Part shown: piece after piece, positions 11,973 to 34,223 of the stretch | Numbering within the stretch: position 1 is the first letter of the stretch | Layout of the letters: every line of letters begins with the position of its first letter | IMG/VR virus record: IMGVR_UViG_3300048582_000269 | Span: 1-46,824 of that record | Length of the DNA stretch: 46,824 nucleotides | From: a virus | Direction: 5' to 3' (one strand) | Made by a program: the position numbers and the translations under genes | Notes under the pieces: model-generated | Told to the model about the DNA's origin: nothing | Seen by the model: only the letters and a program-made list of their open reading frames with translations | The model's database searches: none

Positions 11973-13650
11973 TGATAAAGATGTCGATTTGCGATTTGCT
12001 ACGAAGGCAAAAGTGCTAATTGATTTGATTGCTCCACAAAATCTATTCTTCATTGGAGGTAGAGCTACCGCAAAAACATCGGATATCATTGCCGAGCGTT
12101 CCAAAGCAATTATATACGATATGCCTCGTAGTTATCAATTATTTGTTTCTGATACGTATCAAAACGCATTGACCAACGTTCTACCTGCACTAATTGAAGG
12201 ATGGGAACGAAAAGGATGGCGAGAAGGTATTCACTTTGTCACAGATAAGCGTCCGAACTACGGGAAAAACTTTATCATGCCTTATAAACCTGCAATTAGC
12301 TTCAAACATACCATTTCAGTATTTAACGGAACATTTTTCAATTTAGGTTCGCTTGATCAACCATCAGGTTTGGCAGGTTCTTCGTATCAACACAGATACG
12401 GTGACGAAGCCCGATTATTGAAAAAGAAAAAACTAGACCGTTCCTCCCCTGCTTTGCGTGGTGAGTTTGCGAGCTTTGGTCACTCGGTGTACTACATGGG
12501 GAATACATTTACTACCGATATGCCCAATCTAACGCTTGGTGATGACGATTGGATTTTGAATATGGAGAAGGAAATGGATTTGGAGCAAATAGAATTGGCT
12601 TTGCAAGCGGCACTCGTTTTGAATGACATTAAAAGAGAAATGATTGCCAACGAACAAGCGGGAATCATCAGCGAACGAGCACGTTTGGAAAAAGCCTACC
12701 GAAGCTGGAACGAGATTTGGATAAGAGCTCGCAAAGATTCCACTTTCTTTTATGCAGTTTCATCGTTGGTCAATTTAGATATATTGACGGACGGTTATTT
12801 CAAATCGGTTTTAAAAGCTTTGGGACCGGAAGAATTTAAAACGGCTATTCTTTCGTTTAAAATTCAAATTTCTAAAGGCGAAAAGTTTTATTATAACTTG
12901 AGCGATCATCATTATTTTGAAGATGGAGTAGATAATTCCTATTTTGATAGGTTTTCATTGCGTGACGATATTGTTCCCAGTTCGTTATCCTTACGCTACA
13001 TTGATCATAATGCAAAGTTAGAATGTGGTGTTGATTTTGGAGATATGTGTTCGATGGTTGTGGGACAACAGCGAGGCGTTAACTTATACGCATTGAAGGA
13101 GTTTTTTACATTAGCTCCCGAAAATCAGATACATTTAGGATTGAAATTCAGAGAATTTTTCAAGGATCATAAACACAAAGTTCTCGACATGTATTATGAC
13201 CGTTCCGGAAATCAAAATTCTAAAACCAAACGCGATTGGGCATCAGCCATCAAAGAAGCGATAGAATTTCATCACGGCAAGAGCACAGGATGGGTAGTAA
13301 ATTTAATGAGTCAGAATCAAGCCACCATCCTTCAGGAAGAAGAATATAATTTTGCGGGGAAATTGATGTCGGGAAATGTTCCGGGATTGCCACATTTAAA
13401 AATCGACCGTTTTCGTTGCAAACATTTGAAATCGTCGTTGGAGCTTACCAAAACCTTAGTAAAAACAAACAGGCTTGGGTCTAGAACCATACACAAAGAT
13501 AAATCCTCCGAAAAGCTGCCGTTAGAATCACGACCGTTGTATTCAACGAATTTTAGTGATGCTTTTAAATATTGGATTTATCGAGCTTCATTCGTAGATA
13601 AGGCGAATCCTTATTCGGCTTATCAAGGATATGACCCTGGAGTGATATAG
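11944..13650 (+). CDS. terL: Terminase large subunit
   Basis: 568 aa with a deviant Walker A (FIGGRATAKTS) and a Walker B-like YGDEARLL. Size and two-domain layout are typical of TerL. Confidence 0.85.
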   Translation: MSKRTRVNLDDKDVDLRFATKAKVLIDLIAPQNLFFIGGRATAKTSDIIAERSKAIIYDMPRSYQLFVSDTYQNALTNVLPALIEGWERKGWREGIHFVTDKRPNYGKNFIMPYKPAISFKHTISVFNGTFFNLGSLDQPSGLAGSSYQHRYGDEARLLKKKKLDRSSPALRGEFASFGHSVYYMGNTFTTDMPNLTLGDDDWILNMEKEMDLEQIELALQAALVLNDIKREMIANEQAGIISERARLEKAYRSWNEIWIRARKDSTFFYAVSSLVNLDILTDGYFKSVLKALGPEEFKTAILSFKIQISKGEKFYYNLSDHHYFEDGVDNSYFDRFSLRDDIVPSSLSLRYIDHNAKLECGVDFGDMCSMVVGQQRGVNLYALKEFFTLAPENQIHLGLKFREFFKDHKHKVLDMYYDRSGNQNSKTKRDWASAIKEAIEFHHGKSTGWVVNLMSQNQATILQEEEYNFAGKLMSGNVPGLPHLKIDRFRCKHLKSSLELTKTLVKTNRLGSRTIHKDKSSEKLPLESRPLYSTNFSDAFKYWIYRASFVDKANPYSAYQGYDPGVI

Positions 13651-13668
13651 AAAAATAAAACAGACGTA

Positions 13669-13716
13669 CGCCCGTCAGGGCGAAAAAATTTTTATACCCC
13701 TCAATTCGAGGGGTAT
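13669..13716. terminator. Convergent terminator region (two hairpins flanked by A6/T5 runs)
   Basis: Hairpins cgccc-gtca-gggcg and tacccctc-aatt-gaggggta lie between TerL (+) and the 13701-14357 gene (-). The second overlaps the - strand stop codon. Confidence 0.55.
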
Positions 13717-14357
13717 TTCATTATGATGTGCGGAGTTTTTACTTTCCAAAATTGATGATTGATATAAAACGAGAATCGTATATCGGTCATTCGTATAGTG
13801 TCCATACAGTGAACCTCTGACTTAATTTCGTGCATGGCTAAGTTTACTGCGGTCATTTTTGCACACATTGGGTCAAGGTCCTGACACACATAATAATTTC
13901 CTTTGGTGGAATTGTTAAAAGCGAGAACCATTCGACCACTGCCGGAACAGGGTTCATTTATATTCTTTCCCCATTGCCCATCATCAATCATTTTTGCCAT
14001 CATGTCGCAAAGTGCAGGAGGTGTAAAAAACTGTCCTAATGCGGATTTCTTAGATTTAGAAGAAAGAAATTCGTAAAAATCGCCTAGAGGGTCAACCCAG
14101 CGATTTTTTGTTTTGGCTTCGGAATAAATGTTTAAGAGCTCGCCCATCATTTGGGCAAATATATCGAGTTCATCTCGCTTATATTTTTTTATCGTCTGCA
14201 GATAAAGTTCTTCATTTGTTCCGAAGCCAAAACAGCAGATTGTTACTGTTAACAAGTCATCAAATACGGTTATATAATCGTATTTGATACCTAATTTTTG
14301 AAATAGGGAGTCAAATTTCTTTAACTCCCTATTGATGGTTACTGCATCGTTTTTCAT
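13701..14357 (-). CDS. N6-adenine DNA methyltransferase-like protein truncated before catalytic motif IV
   Basis: GQFFTPP (motif X), NEPCSGSGRM (motif I), CQDLDP (motif II) and AVNLAMH (motif III) are present. No (D/N/S)PP(Y/F/W) motif occurs before the stop at 218 aa. Confidence 0.7.
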   Translation of the reverse strand: MKNDAVTINRELKKFDSLFQKLGIKYDYITVFDDLLTVTICCFGFGTNEELYLQTIKKYKRDELDIFAQMMGELLNIYSEAKTKNRWVDPLGDFYEFLSSKSKKSALGQFFTPPALCDMMAKMIDDGQWGKNINEPCSGSGRMVLAFNNSTKGNYYVCQDLDPMCAKMTAVNLAMHEIKSEVHCMDTIRMTDIRFSFYINHQFWKVKTPHIIMKYPSN

Positions 14358-14689
14358 CGCTTTTCAACCTGAGCATTAGAAAATAAATAGCAAAGCGGGT
14401 AAAAGTCGTCTTCCTCCTCTTCTGCGTTGGTTGGTTCTGCGGTTTGTTTGGCTTTTGGTCTTCCCCAAACTAAAAAAGATTGTGAACCTTTTAAAACCTT
14501 GTATCCTTCTGCGTTCCATTGGTGCAGGGTTTTAAATTCTTGGTTTGCTTCATCTGTGTAAAACTCACTAACTAAAACTTCGTTAACGGTCATTCCGTCG
14601 CAATCTGCTGAAATTCTCATTTTTGCAATTTTCGAGAGTTCTCTCAATGCTTTGCGTCTTTCCTTGTGTTTCTCTTGGTTCTCTGTCAT
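14354..14689 (-). CDS. ArdC N-terminal (DUF1738)-like small protein
   Basis: FKTLHQWNAEGYKVLKGSQSFLVWG...FYPLCYLFSNAQV parallels the ArdC-N pattern T.xQ...G..VrKGe...v.W...f..y.VFN..Q. It overlaps the methylase-like gene by 4 nt. Confidence 0.5.
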   Translation of the reverse strand: MTENQEKHKERRKALRELSKIAKMRISADCDGMTVNEVLVSEFYTDEANQEFKTLHQWNAEGYKVLKGSQSFLVWGRPKAKQTAEPTNAEEEEDDFYPLCYLFSNAQVEKR

Positions 14690-14699
14690 GGCTTATAAA

Positions 14700-14885
14700 T
14701 TAGAGTGATAAAATTATTTTTCCGTGTTCAACTTGTACGTTAAGAGTTTGACCGATGTCAAAACCCGCTTTTGCTATCCAGTCGCCCGAAAGGGTTATTT
14801 TTGGCTTGTGGCTTGTCTTAAATTGTGCCTTTGCAAAAATGTAAGACACACGAACGGAGCGATTTTTTTTAATAAACGTACTCAT
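14700..14885 (-). CDS. symE: SymE-family (AbrB/SpoVT-fold) toxin-like protein
   Basis: RSVRVSY...KPKITLSGDWIAKAGFDIGQTLNVQVEHGKIILSL parallels E. coli SymE RQLTVSY...[33 protein letters not shown]. Start chosen at the internal Met. The ORF track extends it to 14987. Confidence 0.75.
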   Translation of the reverse strand: MSTFIKKNRSVRVSYIFAKAQFKTSHKPKITLSGDWIAKAGFDIGQTLNVQVEHGKIILSL

Positions 14886-15090
14886 CGAAATCGCTTTTAG
14901 TGTTGGTTTCTTGAATGAATAACTCTGCAATTGTATGGGCTTTGTTAAATGCCGATTTGGCAAGGCTTTTAAAGTATTGGTAATCATCCCAATTAAAAAG
15001 GAAAGAATAACCTTTTTCGGTTAAAATTTGTCTAACCTGATATGATAATAAATTTGTATTTTTACGGCTGATATTCGTCTGTGTGTTCAT
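14869..15090 (-). CDS. Hypothetical protein overlapping the SymE-like gene start
   Basis: 73-aa ORF whose stop overlaps the SymE-like start by 17 nt. Confidence 0.5.
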   Translation of the reverse strand: MNTQTNISRKNTNLLSYQVRQILTEKGYSFLFNWDDYQYFKSLAKSAFNKAHTIAELFIQETNTKSDFDEYVY

Positions 15091-15110
15091 GGCGGATAAA
15101 ATTTAAGTGT

Positions 15111-15140
15111 AACCCCTACCCTCGACAGTAGGGGTTTTTT
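15111..15140 (+). terminator. Strong hairpin with a T6 tail on the + strand, inside the leftward island
   Basis: aacccctac-cctcgaca-gtaggggtt followed by tttttt. The 9-bp stem lies between two - strand genes. Confidence 0.55.
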
Positions 15141-15146
15141 AATGGT

Positions 15147-15551
15147 TTAGATTTCAAAGGTTAAAACCTCGTTTTGTGCCTCGTTCAATAAAATTGAAAG
15201 TTCCTCTTTTGCGGCTTTTGTCAGTCTGTCAATTACGTTAGAATTTTGTACTTCAAAACTGAAACCCTGTGCATTTTTAAAAACGATTTTTGCGTTTGTT
15301 TTGTCGTTTCCTGCGTGGAAAGTTTTCAACTCGTTTTCTTTTTCCTTTAAAGCGTTGTAACGGGTTGAAAGTGCTTCAAACTGTTTCGCTCTGTTTATTC
15401 GCTCCTCTGCCGTTTTTATGGGTTCGGGTTTGAATTTCTCCATTACTTTCTCCAAAGATTCTTTTTTCTCGTCGATGGCGGTTTTCGTGGTCGTTGTGTT
15501 TGGTAACTCTTTTACCTCTTGCCTTTTTGGCGTGGATGTTTGTGTGTTCAT
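15147..15551 (-). CDS. Hypothetical coiled-coil protein, first gene of the leftward island
   Basis: 134 aa with a Thr/Lys-rich N-terminus and heptad-like charged helices. Confidence 0.55.
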   Translation of the reverse strand: MNTQTSTPKRQEVKELPNTTTTKTAIDEKKESLEKVMEKFKPEPIKTAEERINRAKQFEALSTRYNALKEKENELKTFHAGNDKTNAKIVFKNAQGFSFEVQNSNVIDRLTKAAKEELSILLNEAQNEVLTFEI

Positions 15552-15592
15552 TGTGATAATGATTTAAATTAATAATACTTAAAGATACAAAA

Positions 15593-15610
15593 TTCCGTAT
15601 ATATACGGAA
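15593..15610. promoter_or_regulatory. Perfect palindromic operator TTCCGTA-TATA-TACGGAA
   Basis: Lies 42 nt upstream of the leftward ATG at 15551 and overlaps a -7-like GAATTTTG on the - strand (15588-15595). A near-identical copy is at 20390-20407. Confidence 0.6.
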
Positions 15611-15737
15611 ATAATTAATACAAAAAATGATATTACAACCATCTTTTTTAATCAATTTATATTTATTCTAAATAGGGTAGAAATCACATAAAAACTTTTA
15701 AAAAATCCATCTTTAAAAAATCGAAAAAAAAATAAAG

Positions 15738-15905
15738 CAGTCAAAAACAACAATTTAACCCTCCTTTAAAGGGGGTTTAATTTTGTTTGTATTGACTGAA
15801 ACACCGCCCCGCTCGTTTCTGTTATTGTAATTACGAAAACCCCTGAAATTTGAGATATATGACCGTGAGAGGGCATCCCACCAATAGAGCGGGGTGGCAC
15901 ACCCC
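15738..15905. other. Structured non-coding element: a long AT-rich hairpin followed by a GC-rich stem-loop with an alternative 3' hairpin
   Basis: cagtcaa (15738-15744) pairs with ttgactg (15792-15798) around a tttaaa centre. ccgccccgctc (15804-15814) pairs with gagcggggtgg (15887-15897). Alternatively ggggtg (15891-15896) pairs with cacccc (15900-15905). Confidence 0.4.
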
Positions 15906-15944
15906 ACCATATTAATACTATTTACCTACTATTGATGTGTGTGT

Positions 15945-15982
15945 CATGTCACACCATTTGAGATTACATGTTGCTAAACTTG
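15945..15982 (+). promoter_or_regulatory. Late-promoter-like element, copy 5 (CATGTCAC-N22-TAAACTTG)
   Basis: The octamer starts 30 nt after the motif. The ATG at 16001 is 56 nt from the motif, matching the other copies. Confidence 0.5.
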
Positions 15983-16000
15983 TATCAAATTGGTAATTAC

Positions 16001-16285
16001 ATGAATGATTCTATAACACCAAGCCAAGCGGTTAAAAGAATGCGAGAGCTTACAGAAAATGGAGCACAGTTTTCTTTTTCGTTCATGTCATACAGCTCCA
16101 AGAAGCATTATTGTAGTGGTATCAAGCATGTAGCTAAGGCTCAGTTGCGAAAGGGATATACTAACAGTCAAAGCGAATTATCACGGCAGTTAATAGGGTA
16201 TGTAGATATAGATGCAGGTCACATCAATCGTTTCTTTCACTTACCACTACTGCTTTCATTTAATAACTATCAAATAAAACCATAG
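16001..16285 (+). CDS. Hypothetical protein
   Basis: The ORF track starts at 15968. The Met at 16001 is preferred because 15968 would sit inside the promoter-like element. Confidence 0.5.
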   Translation: MNDSITPSQAVKRMRELTENGAQFSFSFMSYSSKKHYCSGIKHVAKAQLRKGYTNSQSELSRQLIGYVDIDAGHINRFFHLPLLLSFNNYQIKP

Positions 16286-16287
16286 CC

Positions 16288-17676
16288 ATGCATATAGAAT
16301 TTATGGGTAGAGATGCCATCGTTCAAACTCCTGAAGTAGCCTTTACCTACCAAGTTGCTGAAACACCAAGAGAGTTTGATAAACTAAGAGGCACATCAAA
16401 CACATTGAATTGGGACAATCTTAATGACTATTTAGGGGACTACGTTATATTGCCTTATGGTTCAAACAACGATTTACCGGATATTATTAAAGAAGTAGTT
16501 AAGAATAACTACATTGCTCCTGGTTTATTGAATAGAAAGACTGAGTTACTATGGGGATTAGGTCCTCGTCTATACAGAGAGAAGCTAGAGAACAACAAAA
16601 TCATACGTCAGTGGGTAGATGATAAGGAAGTACAGAAATGGCTAGAATCCTTTGATTACGAAAACTACCTATTGAGCTCCTCTGAAGATTACCAACATCT
16701 TCAAGGTACGTTTACTAAGATATACCTAAACAAAGGTACATTAGTTGGCAAACCTCCTAAGATATCCAAGCTCGAGCATATCGCTCCAGATAAAGCTAGG
16801 TTAGCATTATTACGCACCAAGAAAGTAAAAGACACTCCTACACATTGTGTTATATCAGATTGGAATTTCAGCCATATATCAGCAATAGCCGATTCAAAGG
16901 TTTATCCTTTGTTTGACTATAAGGATCCTTTTTCTAGACCTAACTCAATAATGTATAGCAACAAGTACTCATTCTGTACAGATTACTATACAATACCGGA
17001 TATCTATGGTTCTCTTGAATGGTTAAATAGGTCTACATCTGTTCCTCTTATTTTCAAAGCATTATCAAAAAACAGCATTAATCTTAAATATCATATCATT
17101 TCGCCTGCGAAATTTTGGGATAAGAAAAAAGCAGAAATGATGGAAAGATGTTCTTTAAAAAATGTACAATATACCGAAGAGATGTTCCTTGCCTATCAAA
17201 AAGAATTCCTTGAAAAAATAGGCAAAGTATTATCAGGAGAAGAAAACACAGGTAAATACCTTCACACAGTTAAAGAACTAACTGTCGATGGAACCAACCT
17301 ACTAGAGCACCAATGGGAAGTTAAAGTAATCGACCAAAACATCAAAGATTTTGTCGAGGCTCAAATCAAGATTTCTCAACGTGCTGACAGAGCTGTAGCA
17401 TCAGGTATTTCCTTGCATTCCGCTTTAGGAAACATGTCAGAAACAGGAAAAGTTGATTCAGGTTCAGAACAACACTACGCTCTGATCAGTTACCTAAACA
17501 CCGGTATTGATATTCAAGAAATGATTATCACCAAGCCATTGAACTACGCTATCAAAGCCAATTTCCCCGACTCAGGTCTAAAAATAGGCTTCTATCACAA
17601 TGTACCGGAAAAACAAGAAGATGTTTCGCCATCCAATCGTTCAGCAAACAATTCACCATTAACACCGAAAGAATAA
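16288..17676 (+). CDS. Portal protein candidate
   Basis: 462 aa, the first large ORF of the block that follows TerL. The call rests on size and position only. Confidence 0.45.
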   Translation: MHIEFMGRDAIVQTPEVAFTYQVAETPREFDKLRGTSNTLNWDNLNDYLGDYVILPYGSNNDLPDIIKEVVKNNYIAPGLLNRKTELLWGLGPRLYREKLENNKIIRQWVDDKEVQKWLESFDYENYLLSSSEDYQHLQGTFTKIYLNKGTLVGKPPKISKLEHIAPDKARLALLRTKKVKDTPTHCVISDWNFSHISAIADSKVYPLFDYKDPFSRPNSIMYSNKYSFCTDYYTIPDIYGSLEWLNRSTSVPLIFKALSKNSINLKYHIISPAKFWDKKKAEMMERCSLKNVQYTEEMFLAYQKEFLEKIGKVLSGEENTGKYLHTVKELTVDGTNLLEHQWEVKVIDQNIKDFVEAQIKISQRADRAVASGISLHSALGNMSETGKVDSGSEQHYALISYLNTGIDIQEMIITKPLNYAIKANFPDSGLKIGFYHNVPEKQEDVSPSNRSANNSPLTPKE

Positions 17677-20389: not shown

Positions 20390-20407
20390 TTCCGTATATT
20401 TACGGAA
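20390..20407. promoter_or_regulatory. Palindromic operator TTCCGTA-TATT-TACGGAA, copy 2
   Basis: Lies 12 nt upstream of the ATG at 20419. The flanks aattccgtata...tacggaaata are shared with the copy at 15593-15610. Confidence 0.6.
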
Positions 20408-20418
20408 ATATTTAAGCA

Positions 20419-20637
20419 ATGAACCAATTAGAAATCGATTTACTGTTTCACGAAACAATTCAGCAACGAGGAATTTATAACAAATTGGAAGGCATCACCG
20501 AAAACATGATTTACAACTGGCGAAAAGGCAGAGGTAAAAAACCGGACATAGGCACCATGTTAGGAGTACTCTTCCAATTAGATTTAATCAGAATCCATGG
20601 CAAACCTACTACAACAGCGGCAGAACAACAGCGATAA
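20419..20637 (+). CDS. Small HTH-like DNA-binding protein
   Basis: 72 aa. The ENMIYNWRKGRGKKPDIGTMLGVLFQL segment looks like an HTH. The gene sits directly behind the palindromic operator. Confidence 0.45.
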   Translation: MNQLEIDLLFHETIQQRGIYNKLEGITENMIYNWRKGRGKKPDIGTMLGVLFQLDLIRIHGKPTTTAAEQQR

Positions 20638-21477: not shown

Positions 21478-21876
21478 TTAATCAATCTTTTCAAACGCAT
21501 TCGGGTCAAAACCGCTACCTATATATTGATCATCATCAACCATAATTAAATAATCATGTTGGCGTTTCCATAAAGCTCCGGCATCAACCTCGGTTTTGTC
21601 TTCCAGAACCAATTGGGTTTTGTTTCTATATAAACCATCACACTCGGTTAGTTCCACCAATTCGGGTTGTTCCAGGTTACCTTCCAGATATTGCAAAAAA
21701 GCGGCTTTATCATAATATAAAATCTTACCGGTGCTAAACTTTAGTTGCAATGGATCATAATCTTTCAACCCGGGTTTTTCTGCAATAAACTTGGCAACAT
21801 CTTTAAAACTGCAGTTTTTTAAATGAAGCTTTACACCACCGGTGTACAATACTTCTACTTCTAGCGGTTTAGTCAT
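21478..21876 (-). CDS. Hypothetical protein (second gene of the leftward two-gene island)
   Basis: 132-aa ORF. No motif recognised. It overlaps its partner by 8 nt. Confidence 0.55.
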   Translation of the reverse strand: MTKPLEVEVLYTGGVKLHLKNCSFKDVAKFIAEKPGLKDYDPLQLKFSTGKILYYDKAAFLQYLEGNLEQPELVELTECDGLYRNKTQLVLEDKTEVDAGALWKRQHDYLIMVDDDQYIGSGFDPNAFEKID

Positions 21877-22201
21877 GACGCACCTCCTGACTTTGCAATT
21901 TCAAAATACCTTGTTTAATAATCTCGCTTCCCACTTGCACGGCATGAAAGCTTTCAATTTCTTCAATGTTTTCAAACGCTTGTACAATCTCGTTTAATCT
22001 ACACATGGCGTTACTGTAGTTGCGGCGTTCTTCCACATCGTCAAAAACTTCACTATCCAGTGAAACCAATAAATGATCAATTAAAAAATTTCGGGTTTCT
22101 TTAAGCCCTTGCGGGTCAATTCTTCGGGTTGCTTCCAGCAATTCAATTGCTACATTAGCATGACCACAAAAGGTTGTGGTGTCGTTGTTTTGGTTCTGCA
22201 T
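21869..22201 (-). CDS. Hypothetical acidic helical protein (first gene of the leftward two-gene island)
   Basis: 110-aa ORF. No motif recognised. Confidence 0.55.
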   Translation of the reverse strand: MQNQNNDTTTFCGHANVAIELLEATRRIDPQGLKETRNFLIDHLLVSLDSEVFDDVEERRNYSNAMCRLNEIVQAFENIEEIESFHAVQVGSEIIKQGILKLQSQEVRHD

Positions 22202-30365: not shown

Positions 30366-32175
30366 TTTTGAACTAGATTTATCCTCGTTGCAATTAATAG
30401 ACAACGAGGAAAATCCTTGGTTTCTCGACGAGATTCCATTGCGTTTCACTTTTCCGTTTGAGTTAGATCTAACCGATGAAAACGAACAAAACTTTGGTTT
30501 CATTTCTTCCTACCAAACTTCGCCCGAAACAATCTATCCATTGGTTTACGTTCACGGCAACCAAATGGAGCAAGCAGAGTTGGAGCTGGAGGAACTCAAC
30601 GACAAAAAACTGCAAGCCACTTTATCTTTTGGCTTGGAGAAATTGCCGTCTTGGGATAAAAAACTTTCCGAACTTCCTTTGGATAAGTTTGATTTAGATG
30701 GAGAAACCATCTATGAACATGCCGAAGATGTGATAGCTCTCACCTATCCGGCTGTCAATTACAACTTCCCGCAAGTGCATGTAGAAAATTTTGATACAGA
30801 AAATGATTTATATGCATCATTCCCCGGACGAATAAACAATACCGTTGCAGGTTCGTTTATTCCAAACACTATTGATCCAATTGATTATAGTTCAAACAAT
30901 CCAACCATCATTCAACCACTTCCCTACTGGTTGCATGTGTTGCAAAAAGGTTTTGAAGCTTCGGGACTAACCCTCGAGGGTGAAATTTTATCAGACGAGC
31001 GTCTTTTAAAAAAATGCTTGTATACCAGCAAAGAATATTTCACAAAAAGAGATAATCCTGAATATAGTGCATTTCTTCTCGGAATCGACGAAGTAGAACA
31101 AATAGGAAGCTCTCCCTCCTGGGGTACGATGGGTAAATATGAAGTGATTGTCGATATCGCACAATGGGGAAAGTTCAATATTCTTGGAAACATTAAACGC
31201 TTGGTAGTCGCAAACAATCCATTTCCACCAACCACAATCAAGTTTAATGATGTGGTTATCTGGTCACAATCAGGATATGGTCAAAGCTATTTTGTTGATA
31301 CCACATTCGACACTACAGAATTTGGTCCCAACGAATTAAAAATAACAATCTATTCTCGTATTCCAATCAATCCAAATCTGGTTGATTTAACACAGTTGAT
31401 TATTTGTGATTTACAAATATTGGCTCTTGTATTATATGATGCTCCCGACAGTTTGGTTCCAACCATTATAAACGAAGATAAAATTGATTTAACCAAAGCA
31501 GTTCCCGACATGACCTTTGGCGATTTTGTAAAAGTCATTCTCAATTGGTACAATTACGATTACGATATTCAAGATGGAATTGTTACCATGAATAAAATTG
31601 AAAGCCAAATGAATTACAATAGTGCATTTGATTTATCCATGTTTGAAGTGCGTTCGCCTATACGCCGATTCAAAAAAGGTTATTCATTTGAGTTGAAATT
31701 TCAAGAGGTAGAAACTGATTACGAATACCTTCCGGTGTTTCAATCAGCCACAGAAATTCTTACTGCAGGTTATAAAAAAGATGACAAAACCAAAACAATC
31801 GAAGTAAATGCTTTGCCTTTGCCAAATCTTTTACGTGATGGTATTACAACAGCTCACGCTTTTGCAACCGATGAAAGTAAACCTTTTGCGGTATTTTATA
31901 GTGGTTTAATTGATGGTTTGAATACAACCGAAAGTCCACAAGCTATGATGATTCCGCAAGTGCATGAAACCAATTGGCGACGATGGTTTACTAATAGAAT
32001 TGATGCACAACAATTCACATGGAATTTTAAATCGTGGTTTGATGATATCTCCGGTTTAAAAGCAAAAGGCAAATGCTTTGCTTATGGCCGCTACCACATT
32101 ATAAAAAAAATCCAGCGTACAGAATTGTCGCCGGATCTATTTGAAGTTGAAATTGAAACCGAAACATTAAAATAA
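30343..32175 (+). CDS. Tail-associated/baseplate hub protein candidate
   Basis: 610-aa ORF, second large gene after the tape measure. Its stop overlaps the convergent integrase stop by 9 nt. Confidence 0.5.
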   Translation: MRKLIHTNFELDLSSLQLIDNEENPWFLDEIPLRFTFPFELDLTDENEQNFGFISSYQTSPETIYPLVYVHGNQMEQAELELEELNDKKLQATLSFGLEKLPSWDKKLSELPLDKFDLDGETIYEHAEDVIALTYPAVNYNFPQVHVENFDTENDLYASFPGRINNTVAGSFIPNTIDPIDYSSNNPTIIQPLPYWLHVLQKGFEASGLTLEGEILSDERLLKKCLYTSKEYFTKRDNPEYSAFLLGIDEVEQIGSSPSWGTMGKYEVIVDIAQWGKFNILGNIKRLVVANNPFPPTTIKFNDVVIWSQSGYGQSYFVDTTFDTTEFGPNELKITIYSRIPINPNLVDLTQLIICDLQILALVLYDAPDSLVPTIINEDKIDLTKAVPDMTFGDFVKVILNWYNYDYDIQDGIVTMNKIESQMNYNSAFDLSMFEVRSPIRRFKKGYSFELKFQEVETDYEYLPVFQSATEILTAGYKKDDKTKTIEVNALPLPNLLRDGITTAHAFATDESKPFAVFYSGLIDGLNTTESPQAMMIPQVHETNWRRWFTNRIDAQQFTWNFKSWFDDISGLKAKGKCFAYGRYHIIKKIQRTELSPDLFEVEIETETLK

Positions 32176-33291
32176 ATTATCCAAAAGGAAAATTTCTTTA
32201 TTGGCTTCGCTTTGTAAAATATGTACATATACCATTGTTTGATTGATTGATGAATGCCCTAAAAGCTTTTGCAACATCTCTACCTTTCCACCCATTCGCA
32301 AAAAGAGAGTTGCAAAAGTATGTCGGGCTACGTGAAACGAAACTTTTTTAGTTATTTTCAGGTTGGGCATAATCTTTTTTAATTCATCATTCATGTGCTG
32401 ATCTGTGAACTTGGTGACAAATAAATTAGGAAGCGTTTCTAAAATTCTACGTGCGTTTTGATTTAAAACAATGCTTTGATTCTTATTTGTTTTCTGAGAA
32501 ACAAAGGAAATTTCATTTTCTAGCAAGTCTTTTCTTTTCAATGCTTGAATATCAGAAATTCTCAAACCTGTAAAACACGAAAACAAAAAGTAACCTAGAA
32601 TCATTCGGTGACTCGTGTTTACGTATTCCAGATTTATAAAATCAAAACAACGTCGAACTTCTTCTTTCGACAAATAGGTTCGGTTACCTTTTGTGGAACC
32701 GGTGGTTATATCGTCTACATTCACAGCTAATTTAATACCTGCTCTACTTGCCAATCTTAGAAACTTTTTGATACTCGCAATATTACTATTAATTGTGGTG
32801 CTTTGATTTCCTAGTGAAGAAAGATAGTTTCTGTAACGATCAAACCAACCCATGGTTATCTCCGAAAAAGCAATGTCCGGATTATACTTTTTTACTTTTT
32901 CCATCACTGCTTTATGTCGTGCATAGGTTCCTGGTTCCATCGATGCTCGAGCATCTTCAAGAGCATGTTTAAAAAATGCACAAAAATTTACGCGGCTCAT
33001 GTTTTCAGACAGTTCCTTTTTTAAAAGAGCCGGTGTAATAACCTTTTCCTGCAGCCGATACTCAATTTTTATTTTATTGACTTTAGCCTCGATTGCTTCC
33101 AGAACCAGGTTAATGTCATTTGAATCGGCATTTTCTCCCTTTACCCTCTTTTTGTCACCCAACCAAATTTGGGGGTCAACATAAATTTTGGTATGAATAC
33201 GCTCGCGTTGCTTGCTACCACTACACATTAAATATATCGGCGATTTTCCGTCGATTATTTTGTCTTTACGAAGTAAAAAATAGGTTCTCAT
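32167..33291 (-). CDS. int: Tyrosine recombinase (phage integrase)
   Basis: TGLRISD (Arg I), HVARHTFAT (HxxR) and LLGHSSINQTMVYVH (His/Tyr) motifs. The start at MRTYFLLRKDK matches the typical Bacteroidota integrase N-terminus. The ORF stays open upstream to 33405. Confidence 0.9.
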   Translation of the reverse strand: MRTYFLLRKDKIIDGKSPIYLMCSGSKQRERIHTKIYVDPQIWLGDKKRVKGENADSNDINLVLEAIEAKVNKIKIEYRLQEKVITPALLKKELSENMSRVNFCAFFKHALEDARASMEPGTYARHKAVMEKVKKYNPDIAFSEITMGWFDRYRNYLSSLGNQSTTINSNIASIKKFLRLASRAGIKLAVNVDDITTGSTKGNRTYLSKEEVRRCFDFINLEYVNTSHRMILGYFLFSCFTGLRISDIQALKRKDLLENEISFVSQKTNKNQSIVLNQNARRILETLPNLFVTKFTDQHMNDELKKIMPNLKITKKVSFHVARHTFATLFLRMGGKVEMLQKLLGHSSINQTMVYVHILQSEANKEIFLLDNLF

Positions 33292-33329
33292 TGACACATA
33301 AATTTTTTGGGTGTCAACCAGGGTGTCAA
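33291..33329. promoter_or_regulatory. GGGTGTCAA direct repeats and an inverted partial copy just upstream of the int start
   Basis: gggtgtcaa at 33309-33317 and 33321-33329, ttgacac at 33291-33297, and a third gggtgtcaa at 33505-33513. Confidence 0.45.
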
Positions 33330-33509
33330 AAATCCTTTCAGAAGGGGTTAAATACATAGTCAAACGTTTTTGGGTAAAACAATTAAAGCACATCAAATCA
33401 ACCATTTACGGTGTTTTGAGTGTGCTTCTTTTGACTTTGTAATCTAAATATGTGACCCAGTCAGGAACAAAAACAACACTGATTAACAGTAAGTTACATC
33501 AATCGGGTG

Positions 33510-33824
33510 TCAATTGCGTGACAAATTAAGTTTTAATTCACGCAATCGTTCCTCCAATTCTTCAATAAGAACAAGGTTCCTTGTCTTATATTCTTCCGCT
33601 GCTTCGGCGACAGAATCCATCGTCAGATCGTCCGATATTAAAAAGTTAATATCAGCATCCGGAAAGTACTTCTTAATTTTTTGAATGAAGGTTTTTGAAA
33701 TGTTATCTGAGTTCAGATACCTTGAAATCAAACTCTCACTATAACCGTCCATTATTTTGGATATCTGACGGTTATCGAGATTCTTCTCTTCAAAAAAATG
33801 TTTGGCTTTTGCTGAAAATCCCAT
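33510..33824 (-). CDS. XRE/cI-like HTH repressor candidate
   Basis: 104 aa with an N-terminal HTH (LDNRQISKIMDGYSESLISRYLN). Transcribed divergently from the early rightward operon. Confidence 0.6.
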   Translation of the reverse strand: MGFSAKAKHFFEEKNLDNRQISKIMDGYSESLISRYLNSDNISKTFIQKIKKYFPDADINFLISDDLTMDSVAEAAEEYKTRNLVLIEELEERLRELKLNLSRN

Positions 33825-33851
33825 ACTGATTAATTTAGAAACATTTTAAAT

Positions 33852-33915
33852 TATACTTTTTAGTAAAACTTTTTATCATTTGTTTTACTTTTTAGTAAAA
33901 CTTTTATATACATTT
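33852..33915. promoter_or_regulatory. Lysis-lysogeny switch region: two operator copies and the rightward -7 box TACATTTG
   Basis: TACTTTTTAGTAAAACTTTT occurs at 33854-33873 and 33886-33905, 32 bp apart. A TAnnTTTG match lies at 33908-33915, 21 nt before the ATG at 33936. Confidence 0.6.
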
Positions 33916-33935
33916 GTGACAGATATAACAAACCT

Positions 33936-34223
33936 ATGACAAATATAAAAGAAAAAAACACAAACGGAGATGTGTATTCGCACATTAACAAGGCATTCGA
34001 TATAATCGACAAGTTCCTTCCTAAAATGTATGTGGAGAAAGTTTTAGAAAAACTTCCTGAGAATACCAAAATCACTTCAGCAATAATTAGAAATGTTAGA
34101 AACAGAACTCAACCAAATCTTACTTCAAGATTGGAGGTTGTAAATGCACTTGTCGAGGTTGCATTAGAAAATCAAAAGTACCAGGAAAAGCTAGGAAGCC
34201 TAGTTACCGAAAAAAACACTTAA
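33936..34223 (+). CDS. Early regulator in the Cro position
   Basis: 95 aa, the first rightward gene after the switch region. HTH-like segment TKITSAIIRNVRNRTQ. Confidence 0.45.
   Translation: MTNIKEKNTNGDVYSHINKAFDIIDKFLPKMYVEKVLEKLPENTKITSAIIRNVRNRTQPNLTSRLEVVNALVEVALENQKYQEKLGSLVTEKNT

Follow-up and report, generated by a model that had tools for sequence, protein, structure and literature searches.

Why would a temperate phage keep five genes that read against its late genes, right between its terminase and portal genes? The question is raised by a stretch of 46,824 nucleotides (nt), IMG/VR virus record IMGVR_UViG_3300048582_000269, which we analysed at its full length and refer to as the window. 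It is the genome of a temperate Flavobacterium siphophage, with a tyrosine integrase at 32167-33405, and besides the integrase it encodes a tape-measure protein and proteins resembling the large terminase subunit (TerL) and the portal, as befits a tailed temperate phage. The nearest records were phage vB_FspS_laban6-1 (hereafter laban6-1), ~70% identical to the window in nucleotides over the region, and the phages of the 6H group; all of them belong to the Duneviridae. Our answer has two parts. The five-gene block is an ancestral operon of the phage lineage, made of a universal two-gene core and an exchangeable 3′ cargo slot. As for what it does, we tentatively favour an early, tightly gated accessory operon of Duneviridae-like temperate Flavobacteriia siphophages, with anti-restriction-type cargo, a reading to which we give somewhat less than an even chance.

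Open reading frame (ORF) analysis recovered the five genes that a sequence-only reading of this DNA had listed, at the same coordinates. They are given here in the order of transcription, with lengths in amino acids (aa).

15147-15551, minus strand: cc134, core gene 1, 134 aa
14869-15090, minus strand: p73, core gene 2, 73 aa; overlaps the SymE-like ORF by 17 nt
14700-14885, minus strand: SymE-like cargo gene, 61 aa from the ATG used in homologue annotations; a 95-aa extension upstream is possible
14354-14689, minus strand: ArdC-N-like cargo gene, 111 aa; its stop overlaps the start of the methylase-like gene (ATGA)
13701-14357, minus strand: methylase-like cargo gene, 218 aa, a putative HsdM-like half-methyltransferase

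The operon is read in the direction opposite to the flanking late genes. From p73 onward each ORF overlaps its neighbour or lies close to it (17-nt overlap, 10-nt gap, 4-nt overlap), which makes translational coupling of the downstream ORFs to p73 likely.

Our survey covered 32 IMG/VR loci fetched with the TerL-like protein, the genomes of laban6-1 and 6H, both complete, and three prophages from sequenced genomes. A counter-oriented operon starting with cc134 and p73 was present in all 15 relatives that had a complete TerL-to-portal gap, with TerL identity within the survey going down to ~43-50%, and the same two genes were also kept in the prophages of Pustulibacterium, F. taihuense and Leeuwenhoekiella. 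The genes that follow them were variable. The first cargo position held a SymE-like gene, a RadC gene (138.7 bits) or nothing, and the second held the ArdC-N-like and methylase-like genes, a DUF932 gene (64.6 bits; as in 6H), a DUF6943 gene (105 bits), the ArdC-N-like gene alone or, again, nothing. The operon of locus L037 consists of cc134 and p73 only and is free of cargo. Where the methylase-like gene occurred in the surveyed Flavobacteriia loci, it was mostly adjacent to the ArdC-N-like gene, L041 being among the exceptions. Anatomy and conservation were thus observed directly, as were the family memberships and motif losses given below.

Because the downstream genes are swapped or absent among relatives, the five genes are not one obligate system. 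The sequence-only reading had described an island that splits the late region, a single module of five genes, and a composition for which it knew no described system. We had to abandon all three points: the operon occupies every complete gap; the SymE-like gene gives way to RadC or is missing, as the ArdC-N-like and methylase-like pair gives way to DUF932, DUF6943 or nothing; and RefSeq already annotates the same five gene products in laban6-1, though they go undiscussed in the paper on that phage, which saw no obvious host benefit among the phage genes (PMC7077304). A recent insertion was also considered, and was rejected on account of the unremarkable base composition and the presence of the block throughout the lineage.

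What are the two core proteins? cc134 is predicted to have a disordered K/E/T-rich N-terminus followed by a helix, a β-hairpin and a helix, in a prefoldin-like coiled-coil topology (AlphaFold2 (AF2) model, predicted local distance difference test (pLDDT) score 75). It matched phrog_19224 (4e-39), a PHROG of unknown function, and its model gave no significant structural match in the PDB (best prefoldin, E 0.2) and nothing named in BFVD. p73, a small helical protein, is the best-conserved of the block, with a mean column identity of 61%, and belongs to phrog_21262, also of unknown function. Among 1.84 billion proteins it had 58 clusters, the clear full-length matches being stand-alone proteins of ~45-95 aa, and its AF2 model (pLDDT 68) had no fold match. 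PDB sequence-profile searches with cc134 and p73 returned nothing meaningful. Incidentally, an acidic-aromatic tail, SDFxEY(I/V)F, is conserved at the end of the p73 proteins and recalls, by resemblance only, the C-terminal tips with which single-stranded DNA-binding (SSB) proteins dock partner proteins.

How might such a core be controlled? The sequence-only reading had credited the block with regulatory signals and terminators of its own, namely a palindrome, an internal hairpin and convergent terminators, and every one of them was found. Those bearing on transcription termination and antisense RNA are as follows.

13659-13716, no strand assigned: convergent terminator hairpins (terminator search), between the stop of the TerL-like gene (13650) and that of the methylase-like gene (13701)
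15111-15142, no strand assigned: predicted bidirectional intrinsic terminator between cc134 and p73 (conserved hairpin), GC-rich, stem 15111-15119/15128-15136, then a T6 run
15027-15056, plus strand: predicted antisense promoter in p73 codons 12-21, with -33 TTTG (15027-15030), an 18-nt spacer and -7 TAAATTTG (15049-15056)
~15064-15142, plus strand: predicted cis-antisense RNA of ~80 nt, spanning the start codon of p73 (15088-15090), with its end at the hairpin and T6 run

Terminator-like sites were frequent in 13400-16400 (12, vs 2.1 expected). The hairpin between cc134 and p73 was present in 17 out of 17 relatives, with stems that differ, a TCGAC loop in 11 of them, and A and T runs flanking both sides; energies per locus ranged from -15.6 to -21.5 kcal/mol. 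Its conservation was judged from per-sequence folds, the MAFFT alignment having left the stems out of register. On these features it is a conserved, predicted bidirectional intrinsic terminator. A Bacteroidetes-type -7 box (TAnnTTTG) lies on the antisense strand, 22-39 nt ahead of the complement of the p73 start codon. It was exact in 12 of 16 loci, within the same 23-nt span, against 0.026 expected per span with the same operons as background. Each exact box has a TTG 17-21 nt upstream, and the other loci have a one-mismatch box; in the window itself, the homologous -33 was lost and replaced by a shifted TTTG-N18-TAAATTTG pair. Taken together, the conserved antisense promoter and the terminator predict a cis-antisense RNA of ~80 nt over the p73 start. 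The antisense signals were kept in SymE-less loci and even in the cargo-free L037, which indicates that the antisense unit belongs to p73, and the strongest antisense-RNA signature lies over p73, not over the SymE-like gene. An Rfam scan of 13500-16300 gave a sub-threshold chance match only.

Such an arrangement raises the possibility that the core is a secondary immunity (immI-like) region. p73 would then be a small antirepressor or a dosage-critical switch protein, held off by a repressor site, the terminator and the antisense RNA, and the cargo genes would be passengers. The architecture fits arc-sar-ant of phage P22 and its hypervariable 'ant moron' within the late operon (PMC2629481): a unit amid late genes with its own palindromic sites, and an antisense promoter in the 5′ end of the second gene, firing back over the start to an intergenic terminator. 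The universality and strong conservation of p73, the persistence of the antisense signals without cargo in L037, and a repeat common to the operon and the CI-like gene region (see below) go in the same direction. Yet neither cc134 nor p73 resembles Arc, Mnt, Ant, Icd or a member of any antirepressor family in sequence or fold, no Pfam or PHROG match to Arc, Mnt or Ant homologues was found among the five proteins, and the comparison with P22 and P1 is one of architecture alone. In P1, icd/ant is held off likewise. We hold this explanation to be unlikely, though serious enough to be kept in mind, and it is compatible with an anti-restriction role for the cargo.

Upstream of cc134 and beyond, a second set of candidate control elements was found.

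15593-15610, no strand assigned: perfect 18-bp palindrome TTCCGTATATATACGGAA, 42 base pairs (bp) upstream of the cc134 ATG
20390-20407, no strand assigned: second copy of the palindrome, 17/18 identical, ~4.75 kb away and 11 nt before the next-listed ORF
20419-20637, plus strand: small helix-turn-helix (HTH)-like ORF, 72 aa, with an XRE-like '...YNWRKGR...' pattern, in the structural gene block
15552-15592, minus strand: non-coding block with the highest conservation (TATCTTTAAGTATT...AATCA...), lying between the start of cc134 and the palindrome
15656-15672, no strand assigned: inverted repeat TTTATATTTATTCTAAA, conserved in 16/19 relatives ~105-120 bp ahead of cc134, with the consensus TTTAGAA-N3-TTCTAAA
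33834-33850, no strand assigned: TTTAGAAACATTTTAAA, an inverted repeat located 10 bp upstream of the next-listed gene
33510-33824, minus strand: gene for a CI-like regulator of the XRE type, 104 aa, adjacent to the integrase gene

With up to three mismatches allowed, the 18-bp palindrome occurs twice in the window, as compared with 0.02 occurrences expected. Relatives carry a palindrome ~42-59 nt before the cc134 start; its position is conserved and its sequence is genome-specific, yet palindromic, and the G.U-compatible changes fall on the sense strand. The second copy lies between a 154-aa late gene and the small HTH-like ORF. Near-identical second copies were present in six genomes (the window, laban6-1, L003, L023, L032 and L037), each with its own palindrome. 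Two identical palindromes per genome that differ between genomes point to a putative specific, co-evolving binder, perhaps a protein acting at a DNA operator or else one that binds an RNA hairpin of the boxB type. The product of the HTH-like ORF, which had no Pfam match, is a candidate regulator binding the palindrome, and its putative recognition helix varies where the palindrome varies. The SymE-like protein was considered for the same part and rejected, as SymE-less loci keep their palindromes. The conserved block next to the palindrome could be a promoter or a leader; it does not recur elsewhere in the window.

The inverted repeat upstream of the operon would link it to the lysogeny region. 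At up to one mismatch, TTTAGAA-N3-TTCTAAA had only four sites in three complete genomes, where chance would give 0.07 per genome. Three of them precede the CI-like gene by 10 bp, and the fourth lies upstream of the laban6-1 operon. Moreover, the CI-side repeat of the window and the copy beside the L037 operon are the same over 19 nt. Since the same type of inverted repeat stands beside the repressor gene, we infer that the lysogeny repressor also controls the operon. Within the lysogeny switch, the intergenic region 33825-33935 between the CI-like gene and a Cro-like ORF (33936-34223, plus strand) holds TTTAGAAACATTTTAAA and, as probable further operators, ACTTTTTAGTAAAACTTTT in two direct copies.

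We then turn to the cargo, starting with the 218-aa product, which the sequence-only reading had taken for an N6-methylase-like protein without the catalytic motif. Both halves of that description stand. N6_Mtase (PF02384) matched with 52.6 bits, but over profile positions 4-115 of 311 only, and motif IV reads NHQF and is not invariant in 17 aligned homologues, which show NHQF, NYEF, NPYI, NRLL, VPLM and others at this position. Invariant in the same 17 are motif X (GQFFTP), motif I (PxxGSGR; here EPCSGSGRM) and D160/D162. Across the family, motifs X and I, the acidic residues of motif II and a helix peculiar to these proteins, CAKMTAxN, do not vary; motif III is kept. The protein terminates 14 residues past the motif IV position. 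When the family profile was compared with the PDB, the best matches were HsdM subunits of type I enzymes (EcoR124 3.4e-13, StySJI, EcoKI), and they ran only from the DxxGxxYE helix to motif III. From this limited match and the end shortly after a degenerate motif IV, the protein is predicted to be the S-adenosylmethionine (SAM)-binding half of an HsdM-type methyltransferase, devoid of the catalytic loop, strands β5-β7 and the target-recognition or HsdS-binding part. It has ~80 close homologues of ~217 aa, plus longer relatives. Members come from Cytophagales and Bacteroidales prophages and from Vibrio and primate-gut phages, and form a group of phage proteins of their own, of roughly 215-300 aa, across Bacteroidota, Vibrio and gut phages; in the Vibrio and gut-phage (Dulem-virus) members the motif IV segment is deleted.

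RefSeq and JGI name such proteins N-6 DNA methylase or type I M protein, and one could therefore picture an active orphan adenine methyltransferase that protects the phage DNA. The SAM-binding motifs are indeed intact, and the N and F of NPPF are retained as N-H-Q-F in the closest subgroup. Against this, the motif IV position is unconserved, down to its deletion in the members just mentioned, and the partial profile coverage and early end leave out β5-β7 and the target-recognition domain. We regard an active enzyme as very improbable, the least likely of the rival explanations.

The longer relatives bring in another alternative, in which the cargo would serve the phage's own replication, repair or packaging, by means of a single-stranded DNA (ssDNA)-binding ArdC-N-like protein, a clamp-associated SAM-binding factor and RadC, rather than being directed against the defences of the host. 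At their extreme C-terminus several long forms carry QLSLF, QLTLF or QLSFL (loci L043-L047, L049 and L053; Cytophagales/Bacteroidales prophages), a tail that looks, by motif resemblance only, like a β-clamp-binding pentapeptide. Several of the same prophages encode a 189-aa MgsA_C (RarA-like) protein that ends in GMSLF or GNGLF, so that a clamp-binding-like tail is common to more than one protein of the same phage. The long-form genes lie on the same strand as the terminase genes and just upstream of them, often with a SymE-like gene, which sits between the long methylase-like and MgsA_C genes in at least six prophages. One relative comes from a 101-kb phage, where it lies in the replication/modification region, close to RecA and QueC. 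However, the window protein has no clamp-type tail, and the cargo is absent from some complete relatives and thus not essential. We consider a role confined to phage replication, repair or packaging improbable.

Three further observations concern the methylase-like gene. A conserved hairpin, GGAGTT...AACTCC (GGAGUU...AACUCC in RNA), lies at 14302-14333 of the minus-strand RNA, within the first 60 nt of the ORF; its synonymous positions are invariant in eight relatives (121-nt stretch, z = -6.25), and it may have a part in translational coupling or in the stability of the mRNA. At 14259-14288, plus strand, a near-perfect palindrome of 30 bp (ATCAAATACGGTTAT/ATAATCGTATTTGAT) overlaps the region's best sigma-70-like promoter match (11/12); it is not conserved in relatives, and a sub-threshold Rfam 'cow-rumen-4' match falls there. 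Lastly, in Dulem virus 37, a SprT-like neighbour of the methylase-like gene was considered as an ArdC relative and rejected (hhalign probability 0.03, no PDB match).

The sequence-only reading had further proposed an ArdC-N-like protein. The window protein reached 21.2 bits with ArdcN (PF08401), the cut-off being 22.6, and 14 of 16 family members matched at the threshold of E <= 0.01, with a best E of 7.4e-7, which favours the family call. The 111-aa protein carries the motif F-T-x-x-W-x-x-x-G-x-x-V-K-K-G ... F-S-N-A-Q-V, and showed no HExxH motif and no protease family match. On these motifs it is an ArdC-N-like protein, not an ArdC.

The SymE family call was also borne out, at 53 bits with SymE_toxin (PF08845) for a cut-off of 29. 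The word toxin is another matter: it comes from the Pfam family name alone. The protein is a bare 61-aa AbrB/SpoVT-like domain, to be compared with the 113 positions of the NCBIfam profile for the SymE equivalog (NF010128), and it scored 37.9 bits there where 132 are required. Besides, the SymE-like gene is dispensable, since many relatives have RadC in its place or nothing. A second antisense TAnnTTTG box occurs at 14796-14803, plus strand, ~89 nt into the SymE-like ORF, with a comparable box in 7/10 SymE-bearing loci. It could be the source of a SymR-like RNA; it coincides with conserved P-K-I codons, and no terminator follows it.

A SymE-like gene and a predicted antisense RNA inside one operon also suggest a moron expressed from the prophage, either a type I toxin-antitoxin or addiction unit (SymE-like toxin, antisense RNA) or a superinfection-exclusion or defence module that aids the lysogen. 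The SymE_toxin match, the antisense box within the SymE-like ORF, and the counter-orientation with a promoter region and terminators as in morons would agree with it, and laban6-1 lysogens resist reinfection (PMC7077304), though ordinary immunity explains that. On the other hand, the antisense signals stay with p73 where the SymE-like gene is replaced or absent, the 61-aa domain is far under the SymE equivalog cut-off, and the box within the SymE-like ORF, lacking a terminator, is explicable by its P-K-I codons. PADLOC matched the block to no defence model other than generic methyltransferase models, and the repeat shared with the CI-like gene suggests repression in the lysogen, not expression. 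A moron of this kind seems to us quite improbable.

We therefore come back to the accessory operon with anti-restriction-type cargo. For its timing, the existence of its RNA, its control by the repressor and every biochemical function, we infer the following scheme. Transcription of the operon would be early and transient, and in the lysogen the CI-like repressor would keep it off. Expression past cc134 would be gated by the terminator and by the ~80-nt cis-antisense RNA covering the p73 start. The cargo would act on incoming or replicating phage DNA and blunt SAM-dependent (type I-like) host restriction. The ArdC-N-like protein may coat or mark the DNA as ArdC does, and the HsdM-like half-domain, which keeps its SAM pocket and would not methylate, may interfere with type I restriction as a decoy or a SAM-binding partner. 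The SymE-like protein could contribute as an AbrB-type DNA binder. In relatives, RadC, DUF932 and DUF6943 occupy the same slot.

Part of this scheme draws on what is known of conjugative elements, to whose anti-restriction and establishment genes the sequence-only reading had likened the block. That likeness holds for the cargo, since ArdC-N, RadC and adenine-methyltransferase domains recur there (PMC5512222, PMC11541004). ArdC-N, RadC and γ-class adenine methyltransferases are hub domains of anti-restriction polyvalent proteins (PMC5512222), and the anti-defence islands in plasmid leading regions are dominated by orphan methyltransferases and ssDNA-binding proteins (PMC11541004). As for ArdC of R388, it relieves type I HsdRMS restriction in the recipient, its protease activity being dispensable (PMC7213743).

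Several observations weigh against the same scheme. Regarding the ArdC-N-like protein, the window sequence stays under the Pfam cut-off and matches profile positions 62-107 only, its family profile found no PDB chain, ArdC included, and tblastn against 72,556 plasmids found no homologue, which lends no support to direct kinship with plasmid ardC genes. ArdC, furthermore, works in conjugation, where DNA enters single-stranded, and this phage presumably injects double-stranded DNA. Regarding the 218-aa protein, it is without the HsdS-binding regions, which leaves a simple subunit-decoy model with no structural support, and the clamp-binding-like tails of its longer relatives would point to the replication fork, not to restriction enzymes. 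Regarding regulation, upstream of cc134 there is no exact TAnnTTTG box on the sense strand and no consensus operon promoter could be placed; the operon-side repeat of the window has two mismatches, and repression by the CI-like protein is suggested by motif similarity only. Finally, cc134 and p73 are without a recognisable fold or family.

Does the surrounding region behave in a similar way? The flanking genes deserve a word of caution, in that the labels TerL and portal are drawn from Walker-type motifs, size and synteny. The 568-aa TerL-like protein has a Walker-A-like GGRATAKT and a Walker-B-like YGDEARLL, and its synteny fits TerL; neither it nor the portal-like protein had a named match in Pfam, PHROGs or PDB sequence searches, distant homologues included. 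Relatives have a second hypervariable slot, on the late strand directly after TerL. In L010, L012, L017 and L020, as well as in 6H (gp26-gp29), this slot holds a same-strand cassette encoding a 107-aa protein, an SNF2-related protein (~406 aa), a ParB-like protein (~180 aa) and a PAPS-reductase/DUF3440 protein (~380-424 aa). The cassette resembles IbrA/IbrB and is likely a DNA-modification module. With DNA-modification-type genes in a second hypervariable slot beside TerL, the TerL-portal junction appears as a cargo hotspot.

Other features of the late region were noted. A second counter-oriented pair (132 aa and 110 aa; 21478-22201, minus strand) lies within the head/tail gene block and is probably another cargo slot, and laban6-1 has, further along its late-gene block, a counter-oriented DNA methyltransferase and DUF262 pair. 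On the portal side of the operon, 15745-15967 contains a candidate rightward promoter, with a -7 box TAATTTTG at 15778-15785 just past a hairpin (15757-15777). A GC-rich, apparently structured leader of ~170 nt (15800-15900), with no Rfam match, then precedes the genes for a 105-aa protein and the portal-like protein. In one relative (L024, 12692-13627), an inserted 311-aa ORF separates cc134 from the portal side of the intergenic region; judged by its sequence, it looks like an IS1595/ISXO2-like transposase.

Why does this operon matter? Regulation and counter-defence in Bacteroidota phages are almost unstudied, and the operon is a compact, widely conserved and tractable case, with laban6-1 and 6H as cultured, inducible phages. 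Its defined cargo slot allows candidate anti-restriction genes to be read by position (ArdC-N-only, catalytically dead HsdM-like, RadC, DUF932, DUF6943), and it yields a concrete prediction, an antisense-RNA gate analogous to P22 sar. Should the half-methyltransferase turn out to block SAM-dependent restriction, the mechanism would be new among those of anti-restriction, and the protein has relatives in phages of Vibrio and of the gut. One may go further and suppose both that the half-HsdM proteins are a new cross-phylum class of proteins against restriction or other SAM-dependent defences, some of them clamp-tailed and here partnered with an ArdC-N-only DNA binder, and that the operon is the Bacteroidota-phage counterpart of immI, with p73 as a gated switch or takeover effector and a plug-in slot for early counter-defence cargo. 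In this combined form the idea is speculative, and we think it unlikely to hold as a whole.

How does the operon compare with known systems? The closest in layout is immI of P22, or 'ant moron' (mnt, arc, sar, ant and variable genes). Both are independently regulated blocks amid late morphogenetic genes, with palindromic control sites and a gene flux that is very high elsewhere in the block (PMC2629481). The small antisense RNA of P22, with its promoter in the 5′ end of the second gene and covering that gene's start, has a predicted counterpart here. In contrast to P22, cc134 and p73 are not homologous to Arc, Mnt or Ant, host phylum and promoter type are different, the block lies between the TerL-like and portal-like genes and not before the tailspike gene, and the cargo is of the DNA-entry/anti-restriction type where that of P22 is sieA-like.

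In content, the operon is akin to the leading-region islands of plasmids and integrative and conjugative elements (ICEs) (Samuel et al. 2024, PMC11541004), which are likewise modular clusters, variable in content, of small genes of the methyltransferase, ssDNA-binding and toxin-antitoxin types; the genes of those islands are expressed early, as ours would be. It differs from them in being part of a tailed phage and not beside an origin of transfer (oriT), in having no ssDNA promoter (Frpo), in the catalytically crippled state of its methylase-like protein, and in an ArdC-N-like protein without a tblastn-detectable plasmid homologue. With ArdC of R388/pSa, the shared trait is the ArdC-N signature, and since the anti-type-I activity of ArdC is protease-free (PMC7213743), an N-domain-only protein could in principle suffice. 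The protein here is, however, 111 aa long with no zincin domain or HExxH, its ArdcN match is confined to the C-terminal half of the profile, and it was not detected against the sequence of the ArdC structure.

The 218-aa protein shares with HsdM (EcoR124, EcoKI, StySJI) and with the DarB-type methyltransferase domains of polyvalent proteins the DxxGxxYE helix, FxTP (motif X), motif I, an acidic motif II and motif III. Unlike HsdM, it stops past motif IV, with NPPF degenerate, and has no C-terminal HsdS-binding helices, HsdM_N match or helicase partner. SymE/SymR of E. coli (PMC1891008) is comparable through the AbrB/MazE-like fold family (PF08845) and the cis-antisense RNA predicted in the operon, but the SymE-like protein reaches only about half of SymE's length, and the conserved antisense unit is directed at p73 and is still there in loci that have no SymE. 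Collectively, the cc134/p73 core with its predicted antisense RNA, the half-HsdM family and its pairing with an ArdC-N-only protein are undescribed in the literature searched, and they are set in what is a known kind of thing, namely an independently regulated block of accessory, anti-restriction-type genes inside a phage late region.

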